A stretch of 64,000 nucleotides of DNA from Acidobacteriota bacterium (GCA_965248695.1 CBDFKD010000002.1:3904001-3968000); one strand, 5' to 3'; shown: positions 1-12,826, counted from the stretch's first letter. The notes: generated from the sequence alone by a model not told the origin. Translations and numbers: made by a program.

Positions 1-2
1 TC

Positions 3-923
3 GATGCCGGGGGGCGCCTGTTCCCAGTGCACGACAAGCACAACCTGGCGAGCCCTAGTCCGGTGACCGACGGTGAGCGCGTGTACGCCTGGTTCGGCAC
101 CGGACAGATCGTTGCCTTGAGCATGAGCGGCGAGCAGGTCTGGCAGCGAGCCCTCGCCGAAGGTGGCGATAGCTTCAACATCGGCTGGGGGCACGCTAGC
201 TCTCCGACGCTCTATGGCGACTCGCTCATCCTGCAGTGCGACCACGGTCCGAGCGCCTACCTGCTGTGGCTCGAGGCGCACACGGGCGAGGAGCAGCGTC
301 GGGTGCGGCGTTCCTCATCGACCACGTCGTACAGCACGCCCTCCGTTGTCCCGGGGCCCGATGGCGACGAGCTCATCGTCAACGCCAGCCAGCGATTGGA
401 AGCCTACGATCCGACCAGCGGCGAGCTGCTCTGGCACACGGGCGCCAACAACAGCTTTCCGATCGGCGTGCCGACATACGCCGACGGCGTCCTGTACACC
501 AGCCGCGGCCACCGAAGCGGCCCCTATATGGCGATTCGGACGGGCGGCCGCGGCGATATCACCGACAGCCACGTGCTCTGGCGTGTTGCCACCGGGGCGC
601 CGTATGTGTCGTCGGTGCTGCTGTACCGCGGACGTGTCTACATGTCGAACGGCAGCGGCATCGTCAGTGCCGTCGAGGCGGCAACCGGCGAGCGCATCTG
701 GCAAGAGCGAGTCGGCGGGGTTTTCTCCGCCTCGCCGGTAGCGGGCGACGGCAAGGTATATTTCGTCAGTGAGGCGGGCGAGACGGTCGTGGTGGCCGCG
801 GGCGAAGCTCCGCGCGTGCTGAGCCGAAATCCGCTCGACGCGCGCGTCATTGCGTCACCCGCGATCTCCAATGGCCAGATCTTCATTCGCGCCGACCGAC
901 ACTTGATCGCGGTCGGCAACTGA
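3..923 (+). CDS. PQQ-like beta-propeller repeat protein (BamB-like), 5' partial
   Basis: Frame is open from the window edge. Repeated ASSP/SPV..DGKVY and 'G..LW' propeller motifs, ending in SPAISNGQIFIR. Confidence 0.85.
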   Translation, partial: DAGGRLFPVHDKHNLASPSPVTDGERVYAWFGTGQIVALSMSGEQVWQRALAEGGDSFNIGWGHASSPTLYGDSLILQCDHGPSAYLLWLEAHTGEEQRRVRRSSSTTSYSTPSVVPGPDGDELIVNASQRLEAYDPTSGELLWHTGANNSFPIGVPTYADGVLYTSRGHRSGPYMAIRTGGRGDITDSHVLWRVATGAPYVSSVLLYRGRVYMSNGSGIVSAVEAATGERIWQERVGGVFSASPVAGDGKVYFVSEAGETVVVAAGEAPRVLSRNPLDARVIASPAISNGQIFIRADRHLIAVGN

Positions 924-1023
924 CCGCGATCGGCGGCCGATCGCCCTCGCGTATCCGGCTTTTTCCCGCCGCGCGGCCCGTGTAATGTCTGCTGCCGTCA
1001 TTCCCTCGACTCGTGAGAAAGCC

Positions 1024-1364
1024 ATGTCGAACGAGCTGCGTGTTCCTGAACAGATCGCTCCACTCCATTTCCACAACGCGGCCCCGACGCCGTTCTTCGA
1101 GTGTCATTAGCGGTGTGCCAGGGCGGCAATCCGGTCGGTACCATCACGACCGGCGCCTGGTCACCGTACCTGGGTCACGGCACCGGCTACGTCCGGTTCA
1201 AGGAACCCGGTGGTTGGCTCGGCGCCACGGTGTCGGTGTCGGACGACGACGGGCAGATGCACGATGCCGAGGTGGTGGCGTTGCCGTTCTACGACCCTGA
1301 AAAGAAGATCTCCCGGGGGCTCGACACGAGAGTCCCGGCCGGACCGATTGCGGCCGAGGCCTAG
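1024..1364 (+). pseudogene. Internally deleted GcvT-family aminomethyltransferase paralog
   Basis: ATG 1024 gives MSNELR..PTPFFECH*, matching RTPFFPC of the next gene. A different frame then gives GAWSPYLGHGTGY..LPFYDPEKKISRGLD, matching the next gene's C-terminus. The catalytic core is absent. Confidence 0.75.
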
Positions 1365-1451
1365 CCGGCCGACCTTTGCGTACGACGTTCGCCGCTTGCA
1401 CCGTCGGGGACGCGTGCAGGCGCGGCCGACAACCATGAGCAGTGAGGAATC

Positions 1452-2639
1452 ATGAACGACCAGGACCGTGCCACCCGAGCCGACCCGCAGCACCTCGAAC
1501 CTGATATCAAGGTGATGGAATGGGGGTTCGCGCGCACGCCGTTCTTCCCGTGCACTTCCACCCCGGACACCGTCTACAGCGTCTACAGCGGCCGTCTCGC
1601 CATCGAGGCGATGGGCGACGATCCGGTAGCCAACTACTGGAAGCTACGGCGCGAGGCGGTGCTGTACGACGTGCCGGAGCACCCGATCGAGATTTCCGGG
1701 CCCGATGCAGAACGCCTGCTGAACCGGGTGTTCGTGCGCGATATTTCCAAGCTGAGGCCGGGACGCGCTAGCTACGGCATCGCCTGTTACCCCGATGGCG
1801 GCATCATGATGGACGGCGTGCTCATGCGACTCGCCGAGGATCGGTTCTGGTATGTCCTGGCGAACGGCGAGTTCTTCAGCTGGGTGATGGCACTTGGCCT
1901 CGAGATGGACGTGACCGTCAGCGACCCGGACTCGTGGGTGCTGCAGGTGCAGGGCCCGCGATCGCTCGAGGTGCTGGATACTGCGTGCGACGGTGGCGCG
2001 CCGGATCCATTCAAGTTCTTCGCCGTCACCGAGTGCACCATGGGCGGACAGCCGCTTTGGCTATCGCGCACTGGCTGGACGGGTGAGCTCGGCTGGGAGG
2101 TGTACACGATCGAGCCCGACGTCGATGGGCCGGCTTTGTGGAACCACATCCTCGAGGCCGGCAAGTCGTTCGACATGGTCGGTACGGCAATGGACTCGAT
2201 GGAGAGCCGCCGCATCGAGGCCGGCATTCTCAGCAACGGCAACGACATGACCCCGGCGCACAACCCGTTCCAGGCCGGCCTCGGCAAGTTCGTCGATATG
2301 GATAAGGAAGACTTCATCGGCAAGCAGGCGCTCGAGACTGCCGATCGAGGCTTGTTGCTCTATGGCATCAAGAGCTTGCAGGCAGCACCCTCCGGGGAGA
2401 TGGCGGTCGAGGGTCGGCGGGTCGGTCGGGTAATGGTCGGTGCCTGGTCGCCCTATCTGCAGCACGGCATAGGCTTCGCGATGTTCGACGAGCCGGGGGA
2501 ATGGCCTGGCACACAGGTCGAGGTGCAGGATCCGCAGGGCGCTTTCCAGGTCGGGGAGATCGTCATGCTGCCGTTCTATGACGCCGACAAGCAGATCCCG
2601 CGCGGTCTCGACCGGAGTATTCCGGAGGTACCGAGCTAG
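1452..2639 (+). CDS. GcvT-family folate-dependent aminomethyltransferase/demethylase (DmdA-like)
   Basis: IEISGPDA..LL, LQVQGPRS, SRTGWTGELGWE, RRIEAG, DKEDFIGK and LPFYD motifs. RBS GAGGA upstream. Confidence 0.85.
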   Translation: MNDQDRATRADPQHLEPDIKVMEWGFARTPFFPCTSTPDTVYSVYSGRLAIEAMGDDPVANYWKLRREAVLYDVPEHPIEISGPDAERLLNRVFVRDISKLRPGRASYGIACYPDGGIMMDGVLMRLAEDRFWYVLANGEFFSWVMALGLEMDVTVSDPDSWVLQVQGPRSLEVLDTACDGGAPDPFKFFAVTECTMGGQPLWLSRTGWTGELGWEVYTIEPDVDGPALWNHILEAGKSFDMVGTAMDSMESRRIEAGILSNGNDMTPAHNPFQAGLGKFVDMDKEDFIGKQALETADRGLLLYGIKSLQAAPSGEMAVEGRRVGRVMVGAWSPYLQHGIGFAMFDEPGEWPGTQVEVQDPQGAFQVGEIVMLPFYDADKQIPRGLDRSIPEVPS

Positions 2640-4144
2640 TCGGGTTCCACCCCCTCGTCCAGCAGTGCCATCAGGGGTTTCTTGACGGCGAACATCGCCA
2701 CCGCAACGAGTCCGCAGCCGACGGCGATCCCGCCGAACACCGCCAGTTCCCCGATCGATTGCGCCAACGCTCCCACCTGACCCGAGAGCCAGATCCCGAT
2801 CCCGCCGAGAAGCAGCCAGAGACCCATCATCGTGCCTGCCAGCCGCTCCGGTGCCTCGGCGCTGATGAACCCCAGCCCGATCGGAATGACCGCCAGCTGC
2901 CCGACGGTGACGATCCAGTAGTAGATCAGGGGCCAGAACAGATGCGTCTGCGTGCCAGGATTCAGTGCATGCTGAGACGCGGCGAAGGCCATACAGACGA
3001 AAGCGAGCGCGGTCATCAGCATTCCGATGGCCATCTTGCTCGGCGCCGAAACAGCTCCCCGTCGGTTCGAGGCCAGCTTCCACGTCCAGATCATGACCGG
3101 CCCCAACAGGATCACGAACAGCGACTGGGCGGAGTGGATCCACAGGGTCGGAACCTCGAACCCCCCAACCGTGCGGTCGGTCTTGTTTTCGACATAGAGG
3201 CTGAACAAGCCGCCCCATTGATCGAAGGCCACGAGGAAGAACAGGTAGCACATCGACAGCACCGCGATCGCGAGCACGCGATTCCGCTCAGGAGGCGTGA
3301 GCGCGAGCGAAAACGACTTTCGTTCGGCGGTCTCCGTCAAGGCTGGCCCCCCGTTCGACTCGAACGAAGCAACCAGCCGTAGCAACGCGGCGAACGCGGC
3401 AGCGGCCATGAAGGCCGTCGACAGCAGGGCCGCTCGCCAGCCAAATCGGGTCAAGAGGCCGCCGGCGATGAGCGCGCCGACGATGAACCCGAGGTTGAGC
3501 GCCATGAAAAACAGCGTGTACCCGGTTTCTCGTCGCGCCGGCTCGTCGGCGTACAGTACGCCGACGAGTGCGTACAGGCTGGGCATCAGCAGGCTATAGC
3601 TCCAGGCGAACAGCGCGATGCTCAGATAGAACGCGACGGTTGTGAGTCGGTAGGCCCGCCGAACCGCAAGCCGCAACGTCTCGTTCGCTTCGGCGGCGCC
3701 CAGCACCCGCTCCAGTCGTGCGTCCTCCTCCGAGCCCAGGCTGATTCTTCCAAGCGATACGTCGGCCTCGATGAGCACCTCCCGAACCGGGGCGTCGTAT
3801 ACGAAGCCCACAAGCTCGGGAATCGAGCTCGCGGCGCTGAACAACAGGATGGCGATCGTTCCGCCGGCCAGTCCCAGAATCGCGGCCCGTCGTTTACCGG
3901 TGAAGACGTCCGCGACCCAGCCGCCGATCATCGGCGCCAGGTGCACCACACCGCCAAAAAGGCCGTAGAGGCGGATCGCTTCGGCGCCCGACCAACCGAA
4001 ACCGTAGTCAAGCGGCGGGGTGGTCAGGAACAGGACGAGGTGTCCGATGATGCCGGCGTAGGCCGCGACGTACCACAGAGCGATGAACGACAAGACGAAG
4101 AGGACGCGCGGGTGGCCATAGAAAACCGTCTTGTCAGCGGTCAC
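2636..4144 (-). CDS. Proton-dependent oligopeptide transporter (POT/PTR, MFS)
   Basis: FYGHPR N-terminus, GGWVAD..GKRRA, GYTLFFMALNLG, DQWGG..SLY, APERLAGTMMG; many TM helices. Confidence 0.9.
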   Translation of the reverse strand: MTADKTVFYGHPRVLFVLSFIALWYVAAYAGIIGHLVLFLTTPPLDYGFGWSGAEAIRLYGLFGGVVHLAPMIGGWVADVFTGKRRAAILGLAGGTIAILLFSAASSIPELVGFVYDAPVREVLIEADVSLGRISLGSEEDARLERVLGAAEANETLRLAVRRAYRLTTVAFYLSIALFAWSYSLLMPSLYALVGVLYADEPARRETGYTLFFMALNLGFIVGALIAGGLLTRFGWRAALLSTAFMAAAAFAALLRLVASFESNGGPALTETAERKSFSLALTPPERNRVLAIAVLSMCYLFFLVAFDQWGGLFSLYVENKTDRTVGGFEVPTLWIHSAQSLFVILLGPVMIWTWKLASNRRGAVSAPSKMAIGMLMTALAFVCMAFAASQHALNPGTQTHLFWPLIYYWIVTVGQLAVIPIGLGFISAEAPERLAGTMMGLWLLLGGIGIWLSGQVGALAQSIGELAVFGGIAVGCGLVAVAMFAVKKPLMALLDEGVEPD

Positions 4145-5061
4145 TAACCGGAGGCCTGACCCGTTGACCCCGGCGTCTCACCGACGCACACGGCGCACGA
4201 CGGGTCGTTGGACTCGGCGAGAGCGCGATCTTCCTCGCTCTGGTACTGCGGGGTGTCGTGGCGTGGCAACCGCTGGTCGGCGCCGCGCTCGGCGGTTTCC
4301 TTCCACGCCTCGTCGTCGGTCCACTTGAACGGCAGCGTGACCGTGCCCGGTTCGCTCAGCGCCGTCAGGCCGGCGAGCGCGCTGGTGAGGATCTCGCGTT
4401 GCAGCTCCGGCTCACCCGGTTTTCCGGCGGTGTGCCCGAGTGGGTAGTCGAGGAAGGCGATGCGTGGCGGCCTGGTGGCCTGGATGATGTCGAGCGCGCT
4501 CGCCATGCACAGCGTGGAGATCCCGGCCGCCTCGATCTCCCGTGCGATCAGTCCGACGGACTGATGGCAAACCGGTCAGACGGGCACCAGCAGCGCCACG
4601 TCGACCTGGTTGGCGACGAGGCGCCGGGCCAGTTCGGGCGCGACCTCATCGCGTGCCCTTCGTGACGAGTAGATGCCGCCCATGAAGGTGTACGCGTTGT
4701 CGGCCAGCGCGCCGACAACGCCGTCCTCCACCAACCCTCGTAGCGTATCGATCGGGAAGACCACGTTCGGATCACGGCGCGCCGGGTCGAGATCGTAGGA
4801 AAAGTGTGTGGCGCGGAGATCCGCCGTGTCGACGTCCGTCGGAATCGTGCGGAACGAGACGTCGTCCTTGTAGTGGAAGGCGCGCTGGCCGGCAATGTAG
4901 ACGCCGCCGGAGGCGATCAATCCGAGGCGGCACTCCGACAGCGGCTTCTCGAGCGGTTGCCAGGGTGGAGGGTCTTCGACGCGGGTCCACTCGTAGATGC
5001 CGTAGCCGAGGGCAGCGTATTTCTCCCCGATGCGTGTTATGTACTCGATCGGCTCACTCAT
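4144..5061 (-). CDS. Selenoprotein of the glycine/sarcosine/betaine/D-proline reductase component B family (GrdB/PrdB-like), Sec at in-frame UGA 4576-4578
   Basis: The two track ORFs (4576..5325 and 4144..4506) are in the same frame. Read-through gives LLVPV-U-PVCHQSVGLIAREIEAAGISTLCM..RPPR..YPLGH. Upstream motifs KPLSECRLGLIASGG and DPNVVFPID..L are typical of the family. 305 aa from ATG 5061. Confidence 0.85.
4540..4578 (-). promoter_or_regulatory. Putative bacterial SECIS element
   Basis: Directly 3' of the UGA: CCG GUU UGC C AUCAGUCC-GUC-GGACUGAU C GCA CGG. Perfect 8-bp upper stem, G-starting loop 18 nt after the UGA, extendable lower stem. Confidence 0.7.
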
Positions 5062-5149
5062 CCGCGCGGCTCCAAGGCGGAGGACCGAAGCGTCACATGA
5101 AACGCGCCGCAAACCCCGCCGGTCGACGACTGCCCAGCGAGCGTATCGC

Positions 5150-6976
5150 ATGAAGCGCGTGAGAGGGGCAGTGTTGTTTGTCGCCACATTGGTGTTGTGC
5201 CCGAGCCACGGCCTGGCATCGTCGCCGGCGGTGACCGCGAGATCATCGGCACAGCGACACTCCGTGGTGGTCGCCAGGAACGTCGAGGCGGCGATGCGGG
5301 ATGGCACCGTACTGCGCGCCGACATCTACCGTCCCGATGCGCCGGGACGATTCCCGGCGCTGTTGCGCCGTACGCCGTACTCCAAGAACAGCGACGGATC
5401 GGCAGCGCGCTTTCGGCGGTTGAGTACGCACGGTTATGTCGTTGTGGTGCAGGATACCCGGGGTCGCTACGCCTCGGACGGAGTCGCGGTGCCGCACGAC
5501 GAGGCGACGGATGGTTACGACAGCATCGAATGGGTGGCGGCGTTGCCGTACGTCGACGGCAAGGTCGGCATGTACGGTGGCAGCTACCTGGCGACGACCC
5601 AGCTGATGGCCGCATCGCTGGCGCCGCCACACCTGACCGCGATCGCGCCGAGCTCGTCGTACTCGAGCCGCCACGACATGGTCTTTCAGGGTGGCGCCTT
5701 CTACCTGTCGGACGGGATGTACTGGAACCTGGGGCAAGCGGCGGACGTCCGTCGCCGGGCGGCCGGCGCGTCGTTCGAGGATCGCGACGGTCCGATCGGA
5801 TTGACCGGCGAAGAGCGTCGCAAGGTGCGCGAGGAGCTCCTCTGGCAGGTACCGCTGGCGTCGATGGGGGCGCTGGGCATCAAGGATCTCGCGCCCGGCT
5901 ATTTCCAGATGCTCGCTCACCCGAGCTACGACACGTTCTGGGAAACCTACGACATCGCCCGTCGCCATGGCAGCTTCGAGACTCCGGCCCTGCATGTTAC
6001 CGGCTGGTACGACACCCTGCTGCGCGGGACGCTGGAGAACTTCAGTGGGTTGCGTGCCAACGCCCGGACTCTGCGGGCCCGGGACGGTCAGCGGCTCGTG
6101 GTTGGCCCCTGGACCCATTCGGGGCCGACAATCGAGAGCACCAGCATCGGCGAGGTCGAGTTCGGTCCGGACGCCGGGATCGACTATGAGCAGCTGCTGC
6201 TGCGCTGGTACGACCATTGGCTCCGCGACGGTGATGCATCGGTTGTGGACGCGGCGCCGGTACGCATCTTCGTGATGGGGACCAATCGCTGGCGCGACGA
6301 AGCCGAATGGCCGCTGTCGCGGGCACGACCAGCGCGCTACTATCTTCACAGCGGCGGCGATGCGGCCGAGCGCGCTGATGACGGAGTGTTGAGCACCGAA
6401 CCCCCGGCTGAGGAGCCTCCGGATCGGTATGTCTACGATCCCTCCGATCCGGTGCCCACCGGTGCCGCCGGCGGATATTCGCGCGCGCCGGCGGACGCCT
6501 CGGCGATCGAGACGCGACCCGACGTGCTCGTATACACCAGCGCCGCGCTCGAACAGGATCTCGAGGTGACCGGCTATATCGAGCTTGTGCTCTGGATATC
6601 GTCATCGGCGCCGGATACCGACTTCACTGGCAAGCTCATCGACGTGGCCCCCGATGGGACCGCGCGGACGCTCACCGACGGTATCGCCCGGGCTCGTTAT
6701 CGCGATGGCAAGACGAGCCCGGAGCTGCTCTCGCCGGGCGTACCGGCGCGGCTGGCTATCGACCTGCTTGCCACCAGCAACGTTTTTCTCCGCGGCCACC
6801 GGATCCGGCTGGAGATCTCCAGCAGCAACTTTCCGCGATTCGATCGCAACCCCAATACCGGTGCTCCGTTTGGCACCGACGGCGAGTTGCGAAGCGCGAC
6901 GCAGAGCGTTTTTCACGATAGACAGCGAGCGTCCTACCTGCAGCTGCCGGTAGTGCCTAGCGACGAGTCCGGCTAG
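5150..6976 (+). CDS. CocE/NonD family serine hydrolase (peptidase S15 / PepX_C), secreted
   Basis: MRDGTVLRADIYRP, RTPY, QDTRGRYASDG, GGSYLA nucleophile motif, GWYD, GPWTH, SSNFPRFDRNPNTG; signal peptide. Confidence 0.9.
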   Translation: MKRVRGAVLFVATLVLCPSHGLASSPAVTARSSAQRHSVVVARNVEAAMRDGTVLRADIYRPDAPGRFPALLRRTPYSKNSDGSAARFRRLSTHGYVVVVQDTRGRYASDGVAVPHDEATDGYDSIEWVAALPYVDGKVGMYGGSYLATTQLMAASLAPPHLTAIAPSSSYSSRHDMVFQGGAFYLSDGMYWNLGQAADVRRRAAGASFEDRDGPIGLTGEERRKVREELLWQVPLASMGALGIKDLAPGYFQMLAHPSYDTFWETYDIARRHGSFETPALHVTGWYDTLLRGTLENFSGLRANARTLRARDGQRLVVGPWTHSGPTIESTSIGEVEFGPDAGIDYEQLLLRWYDHWLRDGDASVVDAAPVRIFVMGTNRWRDEAEWPLSRARPARYYLHSGGDAAERADDGVLSTEPPAEEPPDRYVYDPSDPVPTGAAGGYSRAPADASAIETRPDVLVYTSAALEQDLEVTGYIELVLWISSSAPDTDFTGKLIDVAPDGTARTLTDGIARARYRDGKTSPELLSPGVPARLAIDLLATSNVFLRGHRIRLEISSSNFPRFDRNPNTGAPFGTDGELRSATQSVFHDRQRASYLQLPVVPSDESG

Positions 6977-7022
6977 TGTTTCGGGCAGGGTCGGCCCAAC
7001 TGATTCCGGAGATGCGGAAACG

Positions 7023-8751
7023 ATGACAAGCCAGATGAGGCGGGGCGGAGGGCACGGCGTTCGAGGGTTCGCGTTGCTTGGGGTCGTGCTTGCCGCGGTC
7101 ATGGGTGCCGGCCCAGCTCAGACGTACGACGTCATCGTCCGCAACGGCCGTGTCCTGGACGGTTCCGGCAACCCCTTCTTCTATGCTGACGTCGGCATCC
7201 GCGGCGACGAGATCGTCGCGCTCGGTGACCTCGAAGGGGCGACCGCCGCGCGCGTCGTCGATGCCAGCGGCCACTATGTGACGCCTGGGTTCATCGGCCT
7301 TCACGAACACGTCGACAACGACATTCTCGCCGGCGCCAACCGGGTGACCAACTAACACGACGCAGGGCTTTACCACCCTGGTGATCAACGCCGACGGTCT
7401 GTTCGGCGGCATCTGGCCGCTGCGCGAGCAGCGTGAAGCGTTCGAGCGCATCGGCCATGCGCCCAATCTGGTGCCGCTCGTGGGACACGGTGTGGTGCGT
7501 CGTCTGGTGATGGGCGAGGAGCCCCACGAGGTGATGCGTCATGCCACGGGCGATGAGCTCGAGCGCATGCGGGCGCTGGTTCGCGAGGGGATGGAAGATG
7601 GCGCCTTCGGGCTGAGCACGGGGCTGGAGTACAACCCGATGCGCTACAGCTCCGAGGAGGAGCTGCAGGAGTTGGCCAAGGTGGTTGCCGAGTACGGCGG
7701 CCATTTCCAGGCCCACATGCGCAGCCAGGGGCGCTATTCGAAGTGGCTGCTGCCGAGCCACATGGATCACCCGACCCAGCGCCACGTCGACTGGCTCGAC
7801 GCCATCATGGAGGTTATCAACGTCGGTCGCGTGGCCGGCCTCCCGGTCATGCTCGACCACATCCACCCGAAGGGCCCGCGCGAGTGGGGTCTCAGCAAGG
7901 CGACGACGCAGCTGATCGACGGGGCATGGCAGGCCGGCCATCCGGTCTATATCAACATGCATTCCTACGAGGGCTACTCCGCCTATGTGACGCTGGTGCC
8001 ACGCTGGGCGCTGGCGCGCGAAGAGGTACCGGGGCAGAGCGCCTCCGACGATTTCCCGCCCGTGGACTACACCGACATGCTCGGCAACCTGCAGGAGCGG
8101 CTGCTCGACCCCGAGCTGAGAGAGATGATCCGCGCCGATGCCGAGTACGAGGCTATCCGGCAGGGCGGCGCCGACAACCTGATCATCGTCGACTTTCCCG
8201 ACGCGAGCTTCGTTGGCAAGACACTCGCCGAGGTTGTGGAGGAGCGCGGCGGCGACTTCTTCGAGACCGTCATCTGGCTGCAGATGAACGGTCTGGATCA
8301 GCCGGGCGGCGTGCTGTGGATGGCCAAGGCCGTCGGCATGATCGACATCGAGGAATGGATGCGGCAGGACTACACCGCCGTGTCACTCGACCGCGGCTCC
8401 GACGATGGCAGCCGCACCAGCAAGTCCACCCATCCGGGCGAGTACGGTACCTCGGGGCGCCTGTTGCGAGAGTTCGTGTTCAATCGAGGCACCATCACGC
8501 TGCCGCACGCCATCCGCTCGATGACCGGGCTCTCGGCTCAGATTCTCCGGCTCAGCGATCGAGGCCGCATCGCGGTGGGTCAGAAGGCAGACGTCGTGGT
8601 GTTCGATCCCGAGACGGTGCGCAGCGATGCCACCTACCTGAACCCCTACGTCTATCAGCAGGGCATGAGCTGGGTCTTGGTAAACGGCAGCTTCGTGGTC
8701 GATGAAGGTGAGCCAACCGTGGAGCTGCCGGGAGCGGTGCTCGAGCGATAG
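7023..8751 (+). pseudogene. N-acyl-D-amino-acid deacylase-like amidohydrolase, interrupted by a 1-nt insertion near 7354 (pseudogene or sequencing error)
   Basis: The N-terminal ORF has VRNGRVLDGSG..PGFIGLHEH. Removing one A at 7354 joins it as RVTNYTTQGFTTLVINADG to the ORF with GAFGLSTGLEY, HMRS and DRGRIAVGQKADVVVFDP. Confidence 0.8.
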
Positions 8752-8760
8752 GCTCGAACG

Positions 8761-11382
8761 CTACTCGGAGCGCAGCACCTCAACTGGATCGAGGCGCATC
8801 GCCCGCGCGGCCGGCAGGGCACAGGCCAGGGTCGCAGTCGCCAGCATGAGCAATCCCACTCCAGCGAGCGTTGCCAGGTCTGCTGGCGCGACCTCGAACA
8901 ACAGGCTTGCCGCGGCTCGGCCGGCGACCAGGGCTCCACCGATTCCGAGCGTCAGGCCTGTCACCGCGAGTCGCAAGCCATCGCCCAGCACCATGCGACG
9001 TACGTCACCGGCGTTGGCGCCGAGCGCGATCCGCACGCCGATCTCTCGACGACGCTCGCGAACGGCAAACTCGAGCACGCCGTAGGTGCCGATTGCTGCC
9101 AGGACCAGCGCGATGAGCGCGAAGCTCGACATCATGCGCAGGAAGAAGCGTGGCTTGTCGACCGAGTCTACGAGCGCCTGGGTACCGGTCACCAGCACGT
9201 CGACCGGCACCGCGGGGTCGAGCCCTCGGATGACCCGCCGCACCTCCGGCGCAACATCAGTTGGCGGCCCGGCGGTGCGCATGATCACTGACATGTAGCC
9301 CCAGCCGCGATGGGCTGCCGATGGATAGAACAGGTCCATGCTGCCGCGGCGGTCATCTTGTCCGATGAGCTTCAAATCCTCGATCATGCCAACGACGGTC
9401 AGCCACGGACGGTCGGAGTCGAGGCGAAATCGGCGTCCGACCGCGCTGGTGCCGTTGAACAGGAATCGTGCCAGCGCGCGGTCGACGATAACCTTGTCGC
9501 CGTCGAGGCCATCGGCATCGGTGAAGTTCCGGCCGACCACGATGGGTACACCGAGCGTGGGGAAGAATTCCTCATCCACCGTGGCGCTCGGTAGGTAGTC
9601 CTGTGGTAGTGGCCGGGGCTCGCGGCCGTCTGCCTGCGGCCGCAGCCCGAAGCTGATCGCGGGTTCCGGCGGGACGCCGTTGGCCAGCGAGGCGGAGACC
9701 ACGCCGGGCAGGCTGTGCAACTCGTCTCGCAGCGCCCGGAAGAAGTGCCCTCGTGCAACAGGATCCCCATAGCTGTGCCCCGGTAGCTCGATCGATACCT
9801 GCAGCAGGTTGCGGGCATCGTAGCCCGGGTCTACCGCCGTCAGGCGTACGAAGCTCCGAATCAACAGCCCCGCGACGACCAGCAGCGTGACGGACATCGC
9901 GATCTGCGCCACGACGAGGCTGCCTCGTAACCTGGTCGAGCTGCGTTCGGCCGAGGACCAGCGTGTCGACCGGCCGGCGAGCCCACCACCGGTCGCCCGC
10001 CAGCCGGGTAGGACGCCCAACACCACGCCGACGATGGTCGTTACCCCGAGTGCGAACGCCAGCGCACGCTGGTCGACCGCGACATTCCCTACCAGGAAGG
10101 ACGTGATTTCCGAAGGCAGCAGCCCGGCGATCGCCTGCACGAGGCCGAACGCCAGCACCACGGCGGCGGCTCCGCCGAGCCCCACCAACACGAGCGTCTC
10201 GGTGAGCTCCTGTCGAATCAGGCGTGCGCGCGAGGCGCCCAGTGCGGCACGCACGACGATGTCGGCTGCACGGCGACTGGCGCGGGCGAGCAACAGGTTG
10301 ATTGCGTTGAGCATGGCGACGCCGAGCAGCACGGAGACCGCGGCGGTCATCATCCAAAGGGCTCGCGTCACGTCGGCGTTGGCGCGGAACGAATCCAATG
10401 GTGCGGCGCGCAGTGACCAGCCGGCTGGATCCGGGTCGACCCCCTGGAGCCCATCGCCGATGGCAGCAAGCCGTAGCTCCAACTGATCGATGGATTGCCC
10501 GTCGGGTATCGCGGCGACTATGCGAATCCGATTGAGCCGGTCGCCGCCGACGATCGCGTCGGATGCGAGCGGCACCCAGGCGTCGGTTCGCAGGGTCGGC
10601 GGGAAACGGAAACCTGCCGGCATCACACCGACCACGGTGTGCGGTTGCTGGTCGAGAACGATCACGCGACCGAGCACGTCGGGATCGCCGCCGAGCCGGG
10701 CGCGCCAGAACTCGTGGCTCAAGACGCACACTCGCTCGCGGTCGGGAACCGCGTCCAGCTCGCTGAACCCCCGTCCGCGCTCCGGCGTTACGCCGAGCAT
10801 TCGCAACCAGTTGGTCGACACGGCGTGACCGGCGACTTGGTACGGATCATCGGCACCGGTGTGGACGAGCATCACCTGTGCGCGAAGTGTGATCTCCGCA
10901 TAGCTCGAGGTCGTTCGCTGCCAGGCGAAGGCGCGCTCCGGGCTTGTCCAGTCGGTGGAGCGCCCGTCTTCCTGGTCCACCGGCAACAGCGAAACCAGCC
11001 GATCGGGCGCCGCATAGGGTAGCGGTCGCAGCAACACCGCGTCGGTTACCGAGAACACCGCGACGTTGGCGCCGACGCCGAGTGCGATCGTTAGCACCAC
11101 CGCGGTGCTCAAGCCTGGGGCCTGGCGAAGCGCGCGCACCCCGCCGCGAAGATCGTGCGCTACCGATCCCAGCCAGCGAAGTAGTCTGATTCGCGGCTCT
11201 TCTTCGGCGATCTGATGCAGCGAGCTCCGAACTCGCGACACATTGCCGAAACGACGCCTGGCCTCGCCCATCGCCGCCCGCTCCGACCACCCGAGCTCGA
11301 CGAGCGCCTCGGCGCGCTCGCGAAGATGATGGCGGATCTCCTCGTCGATCCCGTGGTCCAGCAAGGGGTCTCGGGGTCGCAT
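8761..11382 (-). CDS. Acidobacterial duplicated orphan permease (ADOP; MacB/FtsX-type ABC permease)
   Basis: ARRRFGN prefix domain, TIALGVGANVAVFS..LLRPLPY, RAALGASR, LVVAQIAMS, EIGVRIALGA, PAARAMRLDPVEVLRSE. Confidence 0.9.
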   Translation of the reverse strand: MRPRDPLLDHGIDEEIRHHLRERAEALVELGWSERAAMGEARRRFGNVSRVRSSLHQIAEEEPRIRLLRWLGSVAHDLRGGVRALRQAPGLSTAVVLTIALGVGANVAVFSVTDAVLLRPLPYAAPDRLVSLLPVDQEDGRSTDWTSPERAFAWQRTTSSYAEITLRAQVMLVHTGADDPYQVAGHAVSTNWLRMLGVTPERGRGFSELDAVPDRERVCVLSHEFWRARLGGDPDVLGRVIVLDQQPHTVVGVMPAGFRFPPTLRTDAWVPLASDAIVGGDRLNRIRIVAAIPDGQSIDQLELRLAAIGDGLQGVDPDPAGWSLRAAPLDSFRANADVTRALWMMTAAVSVLLGVAMLNAINLLLARASRRAADIVVRAALGASRARLIRQELTETLVLVGLGGAAAVVLAFGLVQAIAGLLPSEITSFLVGNVAVDQRALAFALGVTTIVGVVLGVLPGWRATGGGLAGRSTRWSSAERSSTRLRGSLVVAQIAMSVTLLVVAGLLIRSFVRLTAVDPGYDARNLLQVSIELPGHSYGDPVARGHFFRALRDELHSLPGVVSASLANGVPPEPAISFGLRPQADGREPRPLPQDYLPSATVDEEFFPTLGVPIVVGRNFTDADGLDGDKVIVDRALARFLFNGTSAVGRRFRLDSDRPWLTVVGMIEDLKLIGQDDRRGSMDLFYPSAAHRGWGYMSVIMRTAGPPTDVAPEVRRVIRGLDPAVPVDVLVTGTQALVDSVDKPRFFLRMMSSFALIALVLAAIGTYGVLEFAVRERRREIGVRIALGANAGDVRRMVLGDGLRLAVTGLTLGIGGALVAGRAAASLLFEVAPADLATLAGVGLLMLATATLACALPAARAMRLDPVEVLRSE

Positions 11383-11386
11383 GACG

Positions 11387-11725
11387 TTACCCCGCCGCGC
11401 CGCTCAGCTTGTCGACTGCCGCGACGTAATCCGTCCAGCGGCGCTGGCGTATCTGCAGCTCCTGGCGTCCTGTTTCCGAGAGCGAATAGTACTTAGCTCG
11501 GCGTCCCCTCGGCGAGACTCCCCAAGAGGCGCCGATGAGACCGCGGCGCTGCATTCGGTGCAATGCCGGGTACAGGCTGCCCTCTTCGATTGCCAGGGCC
11601 TCGTCCGTTGTTTCGTAGATCCACTCTAGGATCTCGAACCCATGCATGCACTCGTGGTTACCAAGTGTCTTCAGGATGAGGAATTCCAGCGTCCCCTGAA
11701 CGAGATCGAGAGAACCGGGAGCCAT
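11387..11725 (-). CDS. PadR family transcriptional regulator (acidobacterial type)
   Basis: LVQGTLEFLILKTL, MHGFEI, EEGSLYPALHRM, RRAKYYSL; GGAGG RBS before ATG 11725. Confidence 0.92.
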   Translation of the reverse strand: MAPGSLDLVQGTLEFLILKTLGNHECMHGFEILEWIYETTDEALAIEEGSLYPALHRMQRRGLIGASWGVSPRGRRAKYYSLSETGRQELQIRQRRWTDYVAAVDKLSGAAG

Positions 11726-11741
11726 GCTGCCCTCCAACTAG

Positions 11742-11790
11742 CCTAGATAATCTAGGACAAGAATAGGCGGCTTGACCTAGACGGTCAAGG
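11742..11790. promoter_or_regulatory. Two putative PadR operator boxes CCTAGA-N3-TCTAGG
   Basis: Perfect CCTAGATAATCTAGG at 11742-11756 and one-mismatch CCTAGACGGTCAAGG at 11776-11790, directly upstream of padR. Confidence 0.65.
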
Positions 11791-11809
11791 TCAGTCCCGT
11801 AAGCCTGTT

Positions 11810-12826
11810 TCACGAGCTCGTGCGTGCGGCCGTTTCCCAGCAGCCGGTCTCGGCGGATCGGAACAGCGCCTCGATGAGGCGCATGTTCTGCAGCGACATC
11901 TCCAGCGGGTAGGGGACGTCGCTGTCCTCGAGCACGGCGCGCGAGAACTCGTCGCCCTGAATGCGGTACTGGTCGCAGGTGTCGAATTCGACGGTCTCGA
12001 TGCCGGAGCCGAACCGGTCGCCGTCGGTGTCGACGAGCAATCGGCACGGTCTGTCGTTGGGAGCGTTGAAGGGGATCTCGAGCTCCAGTCGGCCCCGGTC
12101 ACCGAACACCGCTACCCGTTGGTGTGGCAGCAGCCTCGTGCTGCAGGTTCCGACGGCGTGCCCGGAAGGGAAATCGAGCATCATCGAGGTGACGATGTCG
12201 ACGGTGGACTCGGGATCGCGTTCGATCAGCCCCATGACGCGCCGCGGCTCCTCGCCGAAGATCATCCGGGACGTCACCAACAGGTAGCAGCCGATGTCCA
12301 TCAGCGCTCCGCCGCCGGCCTCAGCCAGGTTGCGGATGTTGCTGGGGTCGTCGTTGAAGTAGCTGAAGTAGCCGGTGTAGGAGCGCACCGCGCCCAGTTG
12401 GCCGGAACGGCAGATCTCCATGGCGCGCAGCCATTGCGGGTAGGTTCGCACCATGAAGGCCTCCTGCATCTTCACTCCGGTACGGTTGCGCGCCGCGATC
12501 AGATCTTCGGCCTCGGCGGCGCTCATGCCGATGGGCTTCTCGCACAGGACGTGCTTGCCTTGCTCGGCGGCGGCAATCGACCACTCTCGATGCAGATGGT
12601 TCGGCAGCGGGATGTAGACCGCATCGATGTCGGGGTCTTCCAGGAGCTCGGCGTACGAGCCGTACGACGTCGGGATACCGAGCGCCTGCGCTGCCGCCGC
12701 CGACTTCGCCGACTCGCGCGAAGCGATAGCCGCGATCTCCGAGAGCTCGCCGCCCTGCATCGCAGGGATCACCTTTTCGGTGGCGATCTTGGCCACCCCG
12801 AGTACGCCCCAACGCACCTTGTCCAT
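11810..12826 (-). CDS. Gfo/Idh/MocA family oxidoreductase
   Basis: VRWGVLGVAKIA, DAVYIPLPNHLH, GKHVLCEKP, GGGALMDIGCY. Confidence 0.92.
   Translation of the reverse strand: MDKVRWGVLGVAKIATEKVIPAMQGGELSEIAAIASRESAKSAAAAQALGIPTSYGSYAELLEDPDIDAVYIPLPNHLHREWSIAAAEQGKHVLCEKPIGMSAAEAEDLIAARNRTGVKMQEAFMVRTYPQWLRAMEICRSGQLGAVRSYTGYFSYFNDDPSNIRNLAEAGGGALMDIGCYLLVTSRMIFGEEPRRVMGLIERDPESTVDIVTSMMLDFPSGHAVGTCSTRLLPHQRVAVFGDRGRLELEIPFNAPNDRPCRLLVDTDGDRFGSGIETVEFDTCDQYRIQGDEFSRAVLEDSDVPYPLEMSLQNMRLIEALFRSAETGCWETAARTSS

Follow-up and report, generated by a model that had tools for sequence, protein, structure and literature searches.

Does a selenoprotein gene that shares a base with a transporter gene mark a metabolic pathway, or are the two genes just neighbours? 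The question is raised by a 64,000-nucleotide stretch of DNA (the window; contig C2, positions 3904001-3968000) from an Acidobacteriota bacterium whose genome (G000) is 5.89 Mb in two contigs and 96.4% complete. On the minus strand of the window a gene for a PrdB-like selenoprotein runs into a gene for an atypical POT-family transporter (POT1), and genes for hydrolases and a GcvT-like demethylase lie on either side. The first-pass annotation had proposed that this arrangement represents a new pathway, in which an orphan reductase-B selenoprotein is coupled to the transporter. Our analysis, which included four other genomes of the same genus of soil Acidobacteriota (G001-G004), favours another reading, to which we assign a probability of about 60%: the locus contains a self-contained PrdB-like redox enzyme and, side by side with it, a genus-level catabolic island, and the two do not form one conserved pathway. 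The features of the selenoprotein gene, numbered from the first letter of the window, are as follows.

4144-5061, minus strand: PrdB-like selenoprotein gene, 305 amino acids (aa) plus TAG stop, from ATG at 5061 to TAG at 4146-4144 (PF07355, TIGR04483)
4576-4578, minus strand: in-frame TGA read as selenocysteine, codon 162
4544-4568, minus strand: hairpin resembling a selenocysteine insertion sequence (SECIS), 8-bp core CAUCAGUCC-GUC-GGACUGAUC plus two further outer pairs
4186-4197, minus strand: C-terminal tail motif C289-A-V-C292 of the selenoprotein

Decoding of the in-frame TGA codon

Read as selenocysteine (Sec), the TGA at 4578-4576 joins two open reading frames (ORFs), 4576-5325 and 4144-4506, into a single frame of 305 aa with the Sec site LLVPV-U162-PV-C165-HQS. 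A pattern search of species genomes gave 588 matches, 580 of which were confirmed as ortholog loci; the best 80 of the 580, which come from at least nine phyla, were examined, with 8-kb flanks where available. The codon aligned to Sec was TGA in 78 of the 80 loci and TGC in two. Coding sequence ran on past the TGA, and the segment PVCHQSVG found there was nearly invariant. Among full-length database homologs (about 300 aa) the Sec column was occupied by Cys in 11 of 12 and by Thr in one, P0001, a 58% identical protein of 347 aa that reads VTPVCHQ at this catalytic column. Five short database homologs (about 167-173 aa, covering 52% of the query) stop exactly at LVPV, i.e. at the Sec codon.

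Genome-wide profile searches detected selD (319.1 bits, cut-off 125), selB (330.4 bits, cut-off 242.25) and selA (521.8 bits, cut-off 267.9), and tRNA-Sec is present in the genome. ARAGORN predicted two tRNA-Sec genes (G000:C2:4678307-4678404 and C2:5559422-5559519), which are identical only over the 3′ 74 nt and agree at 84 of 98 positions overall. The first of these resembles an incomplete copy and may be the scar of an old integration.

A bacterial SECIS is a stem-loop located just 3′ of the UGA and is subject to a rule on spacing and on a G in the loop. In the window gene the hairpin has an 8-bp stem that begins 13 nt after the U of UGA; all 79 sequences compared have a GUN loop. A single stem pair covaries, being U-A in 51, C-G in 24 and broken in four of these sequences, which are related, so that the counts do not represent independent events. 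At the protein level, the C-G form replaces Ile by Val. The 91 nt following the UGA do not fold significantly better than shuffled sequences (z = -0.71; 41 of 200 shuffles folded equally well), so that the case for the SECIS is made by conservation and covariation.

Comparison with three orthologs from the same genus gave ratios of nonsynonymous to synonymous substitution rates (dN/dS) of 0.14-0.19, indicating purifying selection. On this sequence evidence the gene is a genuine selenocysteine gene.

Conservation of the neighbourhood

The genes next to the selenoprotein gene are:

1452-2639, plus strand: GcvT-like folate-dependent aminomethyltransferase/demethylase (PF01571, 156 bits)
2636-4144, minus strand: POT1, atypical POT-family transporter, 502 aa (PF00854, 108.3 bits, cut-off 27; TIGR00924, 148.7 bits, cut-off 130.2)
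5030 or, likelier, 5150 to 6976, plus strand: CocE/NonD family alpha/beta hydrolase (Peptidase_S15 and PepX_C; TIGR00976, 476.3 bits against a cut-off of 66.3)
7023-8751, plus strand: amidohydrolase (PRK09061-like), split by a 1-base insertion at 7354/7355

The GcvT-like gene and POT1 are convergent, with stop codons that overlap by 4 bases, and the selenoprotein/POT1 pair is divergent from the CocE/NonD and amidohydrolase genes; both orientations agree with the first-pass annotation. The overlap on which its proposal was built is also there. The junction reads ...GGT TAG TGA CC..., where the TAG (4146-4144) and the GTG (4144-4142) have base 4144 in common, and the 502-aa POT frame has no start codon ahead of this GTG. 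Judged from coordinates, the same TAG/GTG junction occurs in G003. The 1-base overlap suggests that POT1 is probably co-transcribed with the selenoprotein gene in G000 and G003.

The association is not conserved. When the window neighbours were searched with tblastn against the 80 ortholog loci, POT was detected in none of them. GcvT, CocE and both amidohydrolase halves were detected in a single locus (L016), which belongs to the same genus (G004) and itself has no POT there: in G004 the selenoprotein gene is followed directly by GcvT, which is convergent with it. When 3209 flanking ORFs were clustered all against all, no neighbour family was present in more than 24 of the 80 loci. From their representative sequences, the larger flank clusters (NADH-dehydrogenase subunits, glutamate synthase, exonuclease III, short-chain dehydrogenase) look like lineage synteny.

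The gene order in the genus is amidohydrolase, CocE, PrdB-like gene, [POT1], GcvT, [GcvT2], PQQ, [POT2], amidohydrolase and a CBM9/DUF5916 protein. The POT1 copies of G000 and G003 (95% identical) are intact, that of G002 (68% identical) has two in-frame stops, one TGA and one TAA, and G004 has none; two of the four ortholog-bearing genomes of the genus thus keep an intact POT1, one has a broken copy and one lacks it. The selenoprotein is intact in both G002 and G004, with dN/dS values of 0.14 and 0.19, respectively. G001 has just a distant, 41% identical paralog of the selenoprotein.

We conclude that the selenoprotein-POT1 junction is young and dispensable. The first-pass annotation had suggested looking for a conserved POT/CocE/GcvT link in close homologs and had named loss of the neighbourhood in relatives as grounds for giving up the pathway. 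In the 80 loci the neighbourhood is not conserved, and a new pathway that couples the selenoprotein to the transporter and the hydrolases is therefore not supported.

An atypical POT subfamily

The best match of POT1 in the PDB was 4w6v_A (YePEPT; E = 1.8e-44), and the half comprising transmembrane helices (TM) 7-12 is well conserved. The first-pass annotation had correctly pointed out that the ExxER motif is missing: helix 1 reads A-L-W-Y-V-A-A-Y-A where YePEPT reads E-M-W-E-R. In addition, POT1 has Met at the Lys126 position (helix 4) and Gln at the Glu400 position (helix 10). Solcan et al. (2012; PMC3419923), in the sections that deal with these residues, report ExxERFxYY in all POTs studied, describe Lys126 of PepTSt as absolutely conserved and needed for proton-driven uptake, and describe Glu400 as strictly conserved, attributing to it binding of the peptide N-terminus.

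A search of 5.8 billion clustered proteins yielded 14 cluster representatives at least 42% identical to POT1, one of which was the genome's own POT2. Beyond these 14 came canonical POTs, with E-values at least 65 orders of magnitude weaker. Helix 1 is covered by 13 subfamily rows, and none of these has ExxER, the pattern there being x-L/A-W-[HYFS]-x-[AG]-x-Y-A-G; the helix-4 Lys was found in none of 14 rows, and the helix-10 Glu was replaced by Gln in 13 of the 13 rows covering it. An insert of roughly 65 aa after TM3 is present in all subfamily members. ExxER, the helix-4 Lys and the helix-10 Glu are kept in five of five canonical rows, which together with the genome's own canonical POT retain EMWERF, LLKPN and GELCLSP. 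The genome holds three paralogs of the atypical subfamily, and the dN/dS of POT1 against G003 was 0.225. By its sequence, POT1 belongs to a rare POT subfamily in which the residues for proton coupling and for binding peptide ends are missing, and which we regard as mildly new.

Association of atypical POTs with GcvT-like genes

The GcvT-like gene scored below the cut-offs of the trimethylamine N-oxide (TMAO)-demethylase, DmdA and GcvT models. Relatives of this gene recur beside atypical POTs: eight of ten GcvT-like places (E<=1e-60, five genus genomes) lie within about 2 kb of one; the exceptions are the place in G004, a genome that lacks atypical POTs, and a fragment in G002. These genomes are related, and the recurrence is a pattern, not a statistic. 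The third paralog, POT3 (C2:2907068-2908345, in the region G000:C2:2899001-2917000), is broken, its N-terminal part being in another frame that ends at a stop. POT3 adjoins a GcvT-like gene 68% identical to that of the window, in a cluster that also has Abhydrolase_10, three amidohydrolases, a flavin adenine dinucleotide (FAD) oxidoreductase, an MR/MLE enzyme and an aldehyde dehydrogenase, and no selenoprotein.

The simplest reading is that demethylase and hydrolases make up the functional set of the POT and that the selenoprotein gene is a neighbour. The genus-level cluster of rare POTs, GcvT-like folate-dependent demethylases, amidohydrolases and alpha/beta-hydrolases would most likely import and degrade an N-methylated or otherwise end-blocked amino-acid or peptide-like compound, and in G000 and G003 POT1 would have landed directly behind the selenoprotein gene. 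Our literature search found no description of the atypical POT subfamily paired with GcvT-like genes, and the pairing deserves modest follow-up of its own.

Absence of Stickland partners

The first-pass annotation had called the selenoprotein an orphan on the basis of the window, and the whole genome bears this out. Neither PF09338 (GrdE/PrdA) nor PF04723 (GrdA) gave a match at E<=1 anywhere in the genome, the best PrdC score was 43.6 bits against a cut-off of 490, and PF07355 hit only the selenoprotein gene, leaving no second GRDB-family gene. The window itself lacks grdA, grdE/prdA and thioredoxin, as had been noted (GrdC and GrdD were not searched). The thioredoxin matches of the genome, one strong (112.4 bits) and three weak, all lie outside the window. 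Haem-copper oxidase subunit I is encoded in the genome. PF09338 was also absent in four of five other ortholog-bearing genomes tested; in the fifth, that of Entotheonella, its matches are megabases away from the ortholog. In summary, the protein is a stand-alone ('orphan') B-type selenoprotein in a genome without Stickland partners.

Family placement

The selenoprotein scored 41.2 bits with PF07355 (GRDB; cut-off 22), matching only the last third of the model (221-345 of 347). TIGR04483 (PrdB) aligned end to end (14-235 of 238) with 172.2 bits, below its 300-bit cut-off. Scores with the GrdB/GrdF/GrdH models all fell below the cut-offs (TIGR01917, 56.1 bits against 602.2; TIGR01918, 56.7 against 65.45), as did those with NF040794/5 (62.7 and 56.3 bits). 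In a quick tree of 54 rows, for which support was estimated by the Shimodaira-Hasegawa-like approximate likelihood ratio test (SH-aLRT) only, P0174, the one true PrdB, was split from all 52 PrdB-like rows (SH-aLRT 96). The window protein fell within a 20-row clade (SH-aLRT 95) that mixes Acidobacteriota, Tectimicrobiota, Methylomirabilota, Binatota, Myxococcota, Gemmatimonadota, Chloroflexota, Pseudomonadota and Thermodesulfobacteriota.

This clade is large and crosses phyla, with proteins of roughly 290-305 aa. Its members are marked in the alignments by the LVPV-U-PVCHQ site and by a C-terminal extension with the conserved sequence P-Q-Y-Q-x-E-E-D-R, and usually they also carry a CxxC at the C-terminus. 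A P-Q-Y-Q-like motif was found in 77 of 79 complete orthologs, and CxxC was present inside the last 30 residues in 66 of the 79; this tail, too, we regard as mildly new. An exhaustive search of 1.84 billion representatives gave 1995 relatives at E<=1e-3, 837 at E<=1e-10 and 73 at E<=1e-30.

Remoter PrdB-like genes, 28-49% identical and mostly with open frames of about 250 aa, occur in 15 of 36 genomes outside the genus (G005-G040); the matches listed have exactly one in-frame TGA each, and some genomes have two or three copies. Fusions to other domains turned up only among distant paralogs: an AMP-binding (adenylating) domain in P0184 and P0185, a helix-turn-helix domain in P0212 and an alpha/beta-hydrolase in P0080. 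Transfer of function from these fused proteins was considered and rejected, as they are too far from the clade of the window protein. P0232 shows a weak overlapping match to the UGSC family (PF24696), another marine UxxC selenoprotein family.

The family has been catalogued before. The parts of Zhang, Fomenko & Gladyshev (2005; PMC1088965) that concern it list 'proline reductase PrdB' as a UXXC family with 42 Sargasso Sea Sec sequences, placed in Table 3 among 'thiol-dependent redox selenoproteins'. The corresponding part of Zhang & Gladyshev (2008; PMC2398784) counts 235 Sec and 110 Cys sequences of pfam07355 in the Global Ocean Sampling (GOS) data, among the most abundant families. Where reviews of 2022 and 2026 mention the family, it is still filed under D-proline reductase. 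The selenoprotein is a member of this known 'proline reductase PrdB' UxxC family and is not new. Our literature search found no paper on the function of orphan PrdB homologs.

Structure and proposed mechanism

The AlphaFold (AF2) model of the selenoprotein had a predicted local distance difference test score (pLDDT) of 92.3 and a predicted template modelling score (pTM) of 0.92. It places U162 between a strand (155-159) and a helix (163-178). The passage from a strand to the N-terminus of a helix is the usual place of a redox-active CxxC. Columns G53, R71, P103, G128, U162, C165 and R200 were invariant among 36 diverse family members.

According to the parts of PMC11229817 on the true Prd enzyme, D-proline is held on the PrdA pyruvoyl group and undergoes attack by Sec at its alpha-carbon, PrdC regenerates the enzyme, and the U151C variant is inactive. 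By analogy, U162 would act as a selenolate at the N-terminus of the helix that follows the β-strand, as in redox CxxC proteins, and would attack a small substrate, probably one with a carboxylate, at an electrophilic centre while R71 and R200 hold the molecule. C165 could then resolve the Se-adduct to a selenenylsulfide, which thioredoxin might re-reduce, either directly or via the flexible C289xxC292 tail. The chemistry, the reductant and the redox-relay role of the tail are what we infer from these analogies.

Alternative readings

The alternative that survives best assumes a pathway confined to the genus. POT1 would import a modified amino acid or peptide, the selenoprotein would cleave it reductively, and CocE, amidohydrolase and GcvT would process precursors or products, the whole being a young lineage-specific operon. 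The retention of the 1-base overlap in G003, the intactness of both genes under purifying selection in G000 and G003, and the order amidohydrolase, CocE, PrdB-like gene, [POT1], GcvT in four genus genomes are all consistent with such a pathway, and a POT1 without the residues for free peptide termini would fit an unusual substrate. We nevertheless consider it unlikely. Common descent would be expected to preserve gene order within a genus, no POT was detected in the 80 loci, and where POT1 is pseudogenised (G002) or absent (G004) the selenoprotein has stayed intact (dN/dS 0.14-0.19). The POT paralogs, moreover, sit with GcvT-like and hydrolase genes and without a selenoprotein.

A second alternative keeps the protein as the B subunit of a Stickland-like reductase whose substrate-binding partner (pyruvoyl or another carbonyl) is encoded elsewhere and is not homologous to PrdA/GrdE. 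It draws on homology over the whole length of PrdB with the same U/C-x-x-C-H site, on the attack of the Prd Sec on a PrdA-held substrate as given in the cited part of PMC11229817, and on the conserved C-terminal extension, which could be a docking peptide. We find it rather improbable, since no neighbour family occurs in more than 24 of the 80 loci, PF09338 is absent in G000 and in four of the five other genomes tested, and a search for longer, fused forms yielded none among 8000 scored candidates, which is weak evidence.

Similarly improbable is a general selenol/thiol-disulfide oxidoreductase, such as an antioxidant or protein-disulfide reductase, that has no small-molecule substrate. The modelled position of UxxC at a helix N-terminus, the CxxC tail of most orthologs, the scattered, house-keeping-like genomic context and the grouping in Table 3 of PMC1088965, as far as that table goes, would all suit such an enzyme. 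However, R71, R200 and many other residues outside the redox motif are kept in true PrdB, which argues for a defined small anionic ligand, and Foldseek found no thioredoxin-fold match in the PDB.

A more speculative proposal takes the POT without ExxER, Lys and Glu and the GcvT-like protein as an undescribed uptake-and-demethylation module for an end-blocked or N-methylated compound. The POT would no longer be proton-coupled and, in this genus only, the selenoprotein would have been recruited for reductive C-N (or C-S) cleavage; we hold this to be doubtful in about the same degree as the two preceding alternatives. The idea that the TGA is a true stop, separating two ORFs or marking a pseudogene, merits almost no credence: gene callers do end many homologs there (about 167-173 aa, 52% of the query), but the TGA occupies the same column in 78 of 80 loci with conserved PVCHQSVG behind it, Cys homologs exist, the hairpin covaries and the genome has the full Sec machinery.

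Several observations weigh against the reading that we prefer, a selenoprotein and an island lying side by side. A 1-base stop/start overlap is a classic sign that translation of two genes is coupled. The G000 versus G003 dN/dS values, 0.18 for the selenoprotein and 0.23 for POT1, indicate purifying selection on both, and together with the overlap this makes a real functional link possible in this lineage. The neighbourhood count rests on the best 80 of at least 580 loci, with 8-kb flanks. Shared ancestry of the genus genomes, together with local duplication of some pairs, accounts for part of the POT-GcvT recurrence. Thirteen of 79 orthologs, among them the closest one (L016), the Entotheonella group and both Cys forms, have no CxxC tail, which therefore cannot be essential. 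A PDB sequence search with the selenoprotein gave no match at E<=1, and Foldseek of the model against the PDB gave none at E<=1e-3 (best TM-score about 0.3), so that the fold offered no clue to function; with no GRDB-family structure found for comparison, the mechanism is by analogy only. Finally, true PrdB needs a pyruvoyl partner to hold the substrate, for which the proposed mechanism offers no replacement in the orphan.

Other features of the locus

The G+C content of the window is 64-68%. Three further features flank the genes discussed above.

Ending at 923: PQQ-like beta-propeller gene, 3′ part
1125-1346, plus strand: remnant of a GcvT-like paralog, 74 aa aligned; G003 and G002 have a full-length copy (62-64% identical) in this position
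8761-11382: ADOP-family permease (736.1 bits against a cut-off of 622.3), in keeping with an Acidobacteriota origin

The longest CocE/NonD ORF, starting at 5030, overlaps the selenoprotein start by 32 bases. The start is more likely M41 (5150), which precedes a signal-peptide-like stretch; this would suggest an exported hydrolase and an 88-base divergent intergenic region.

Where the first-pass annotation had named D-aminoacylase-like genes there is indeed a hydrolase, but it is one amidohydrolase split by the 1-base insertion. The split is caused by one extra A (AACTAACACG in place of AACT-ACACG in G003, G002 and G004). This base gives rise to a TAA at 7353-7355; it is either a true frameshift or a mistake of the assembly. 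A frameshift common to the four genomes was ruled out by DNA alignment: it occurs in the window genome only.

Rfam gave no match at E<=1 in bases 1-12000. A scan of 1200-5500 detected no promoters and two terminator-like sites, which were on the wrong strand and at chance level.

Implications

The PrdB-like UxxC proteins rank with the most abundant selenoproteins of ocean and soil, yet in databases they are named after an enzyme whose partners they lack. Their reaction, once known, would fill a real gap in selenium biology. The locus gives no functional answer, as the apparent operon partner is a recent, genus-confined neighbour. What it does provide is clean negative evidence, no conserved neighbour in 80 loci from at least nine phyla, and two testable features, the C-terminal extension with its frequent CxxC tail and the invariant arginine pair common to true PrdB. 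Were the recruited-selenoprotein module real, it would for the first time give a physiological setting to a family that has been catalogued since 2005 with no function assigned. The rare POT subfamily lacks every residue thought to be needed for proton coupling or peptide-end recognition, yet is under purifying selection, and so constitutes a natural experiment on the workings of this transporter family.

Comparison with known systems

POT1 has the MFS/PTR2 fold and sequence of the canonical bacterial POT peptide/H+ symporters (PepTSt, YePEPT 4w6v, DtpA-D). It differs from them in lacking ExxER, Lys126 and Glu400 and in carrying the insert of about 65 aa. Degenerate ExxER/K motifs are described within the POT family for plant NPF members, in the parts of PMC6288477 and PMC4675897 devoted to them; these are eukaryotic proteins of another clade, and a limited literature search turned up no bacterial counterpart to this motif loss.

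The selenoprotein shares its Pfam family with GrdB/GrdF/GrdH (protein B of glycine, sarcosine and betaine reductase), but is about 130 residues shorter, and the genome has neither GrdA nor GrdE. It is closer to PrdB: with the true PrdB P0174 (453.2 bits on TIGR04483) it is 39% identical over 198 aa, its UPVCH aligns with CGTCH, and FMGG, R71 and R200 are common to both. Compared with clostridial PrdB, the window protein has about 30 extra N-terminal and about 60 extra C-terminal residues. Unlike the clostridial D-proline reductase, it occurs in a genome that lacks PrdA, PrdC and GrdA and encodes a haem-copper oxidase.

The closest known system is the environmental 'PrdB' UxxC family, which, as presented in the relevant portions of PMC1088965 and PMC2398784, likewise belongs to pfam07355, has UxxC and Cys homologs, and comes from aerobic, non-clostridial communities. 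Those portions name the family after the enzyme and give no function. Our analysis goes beyond them in showing a genome-wide lack of PrdA and in delimiting a clade by its C-terminal extension and frequent CxxC tail.

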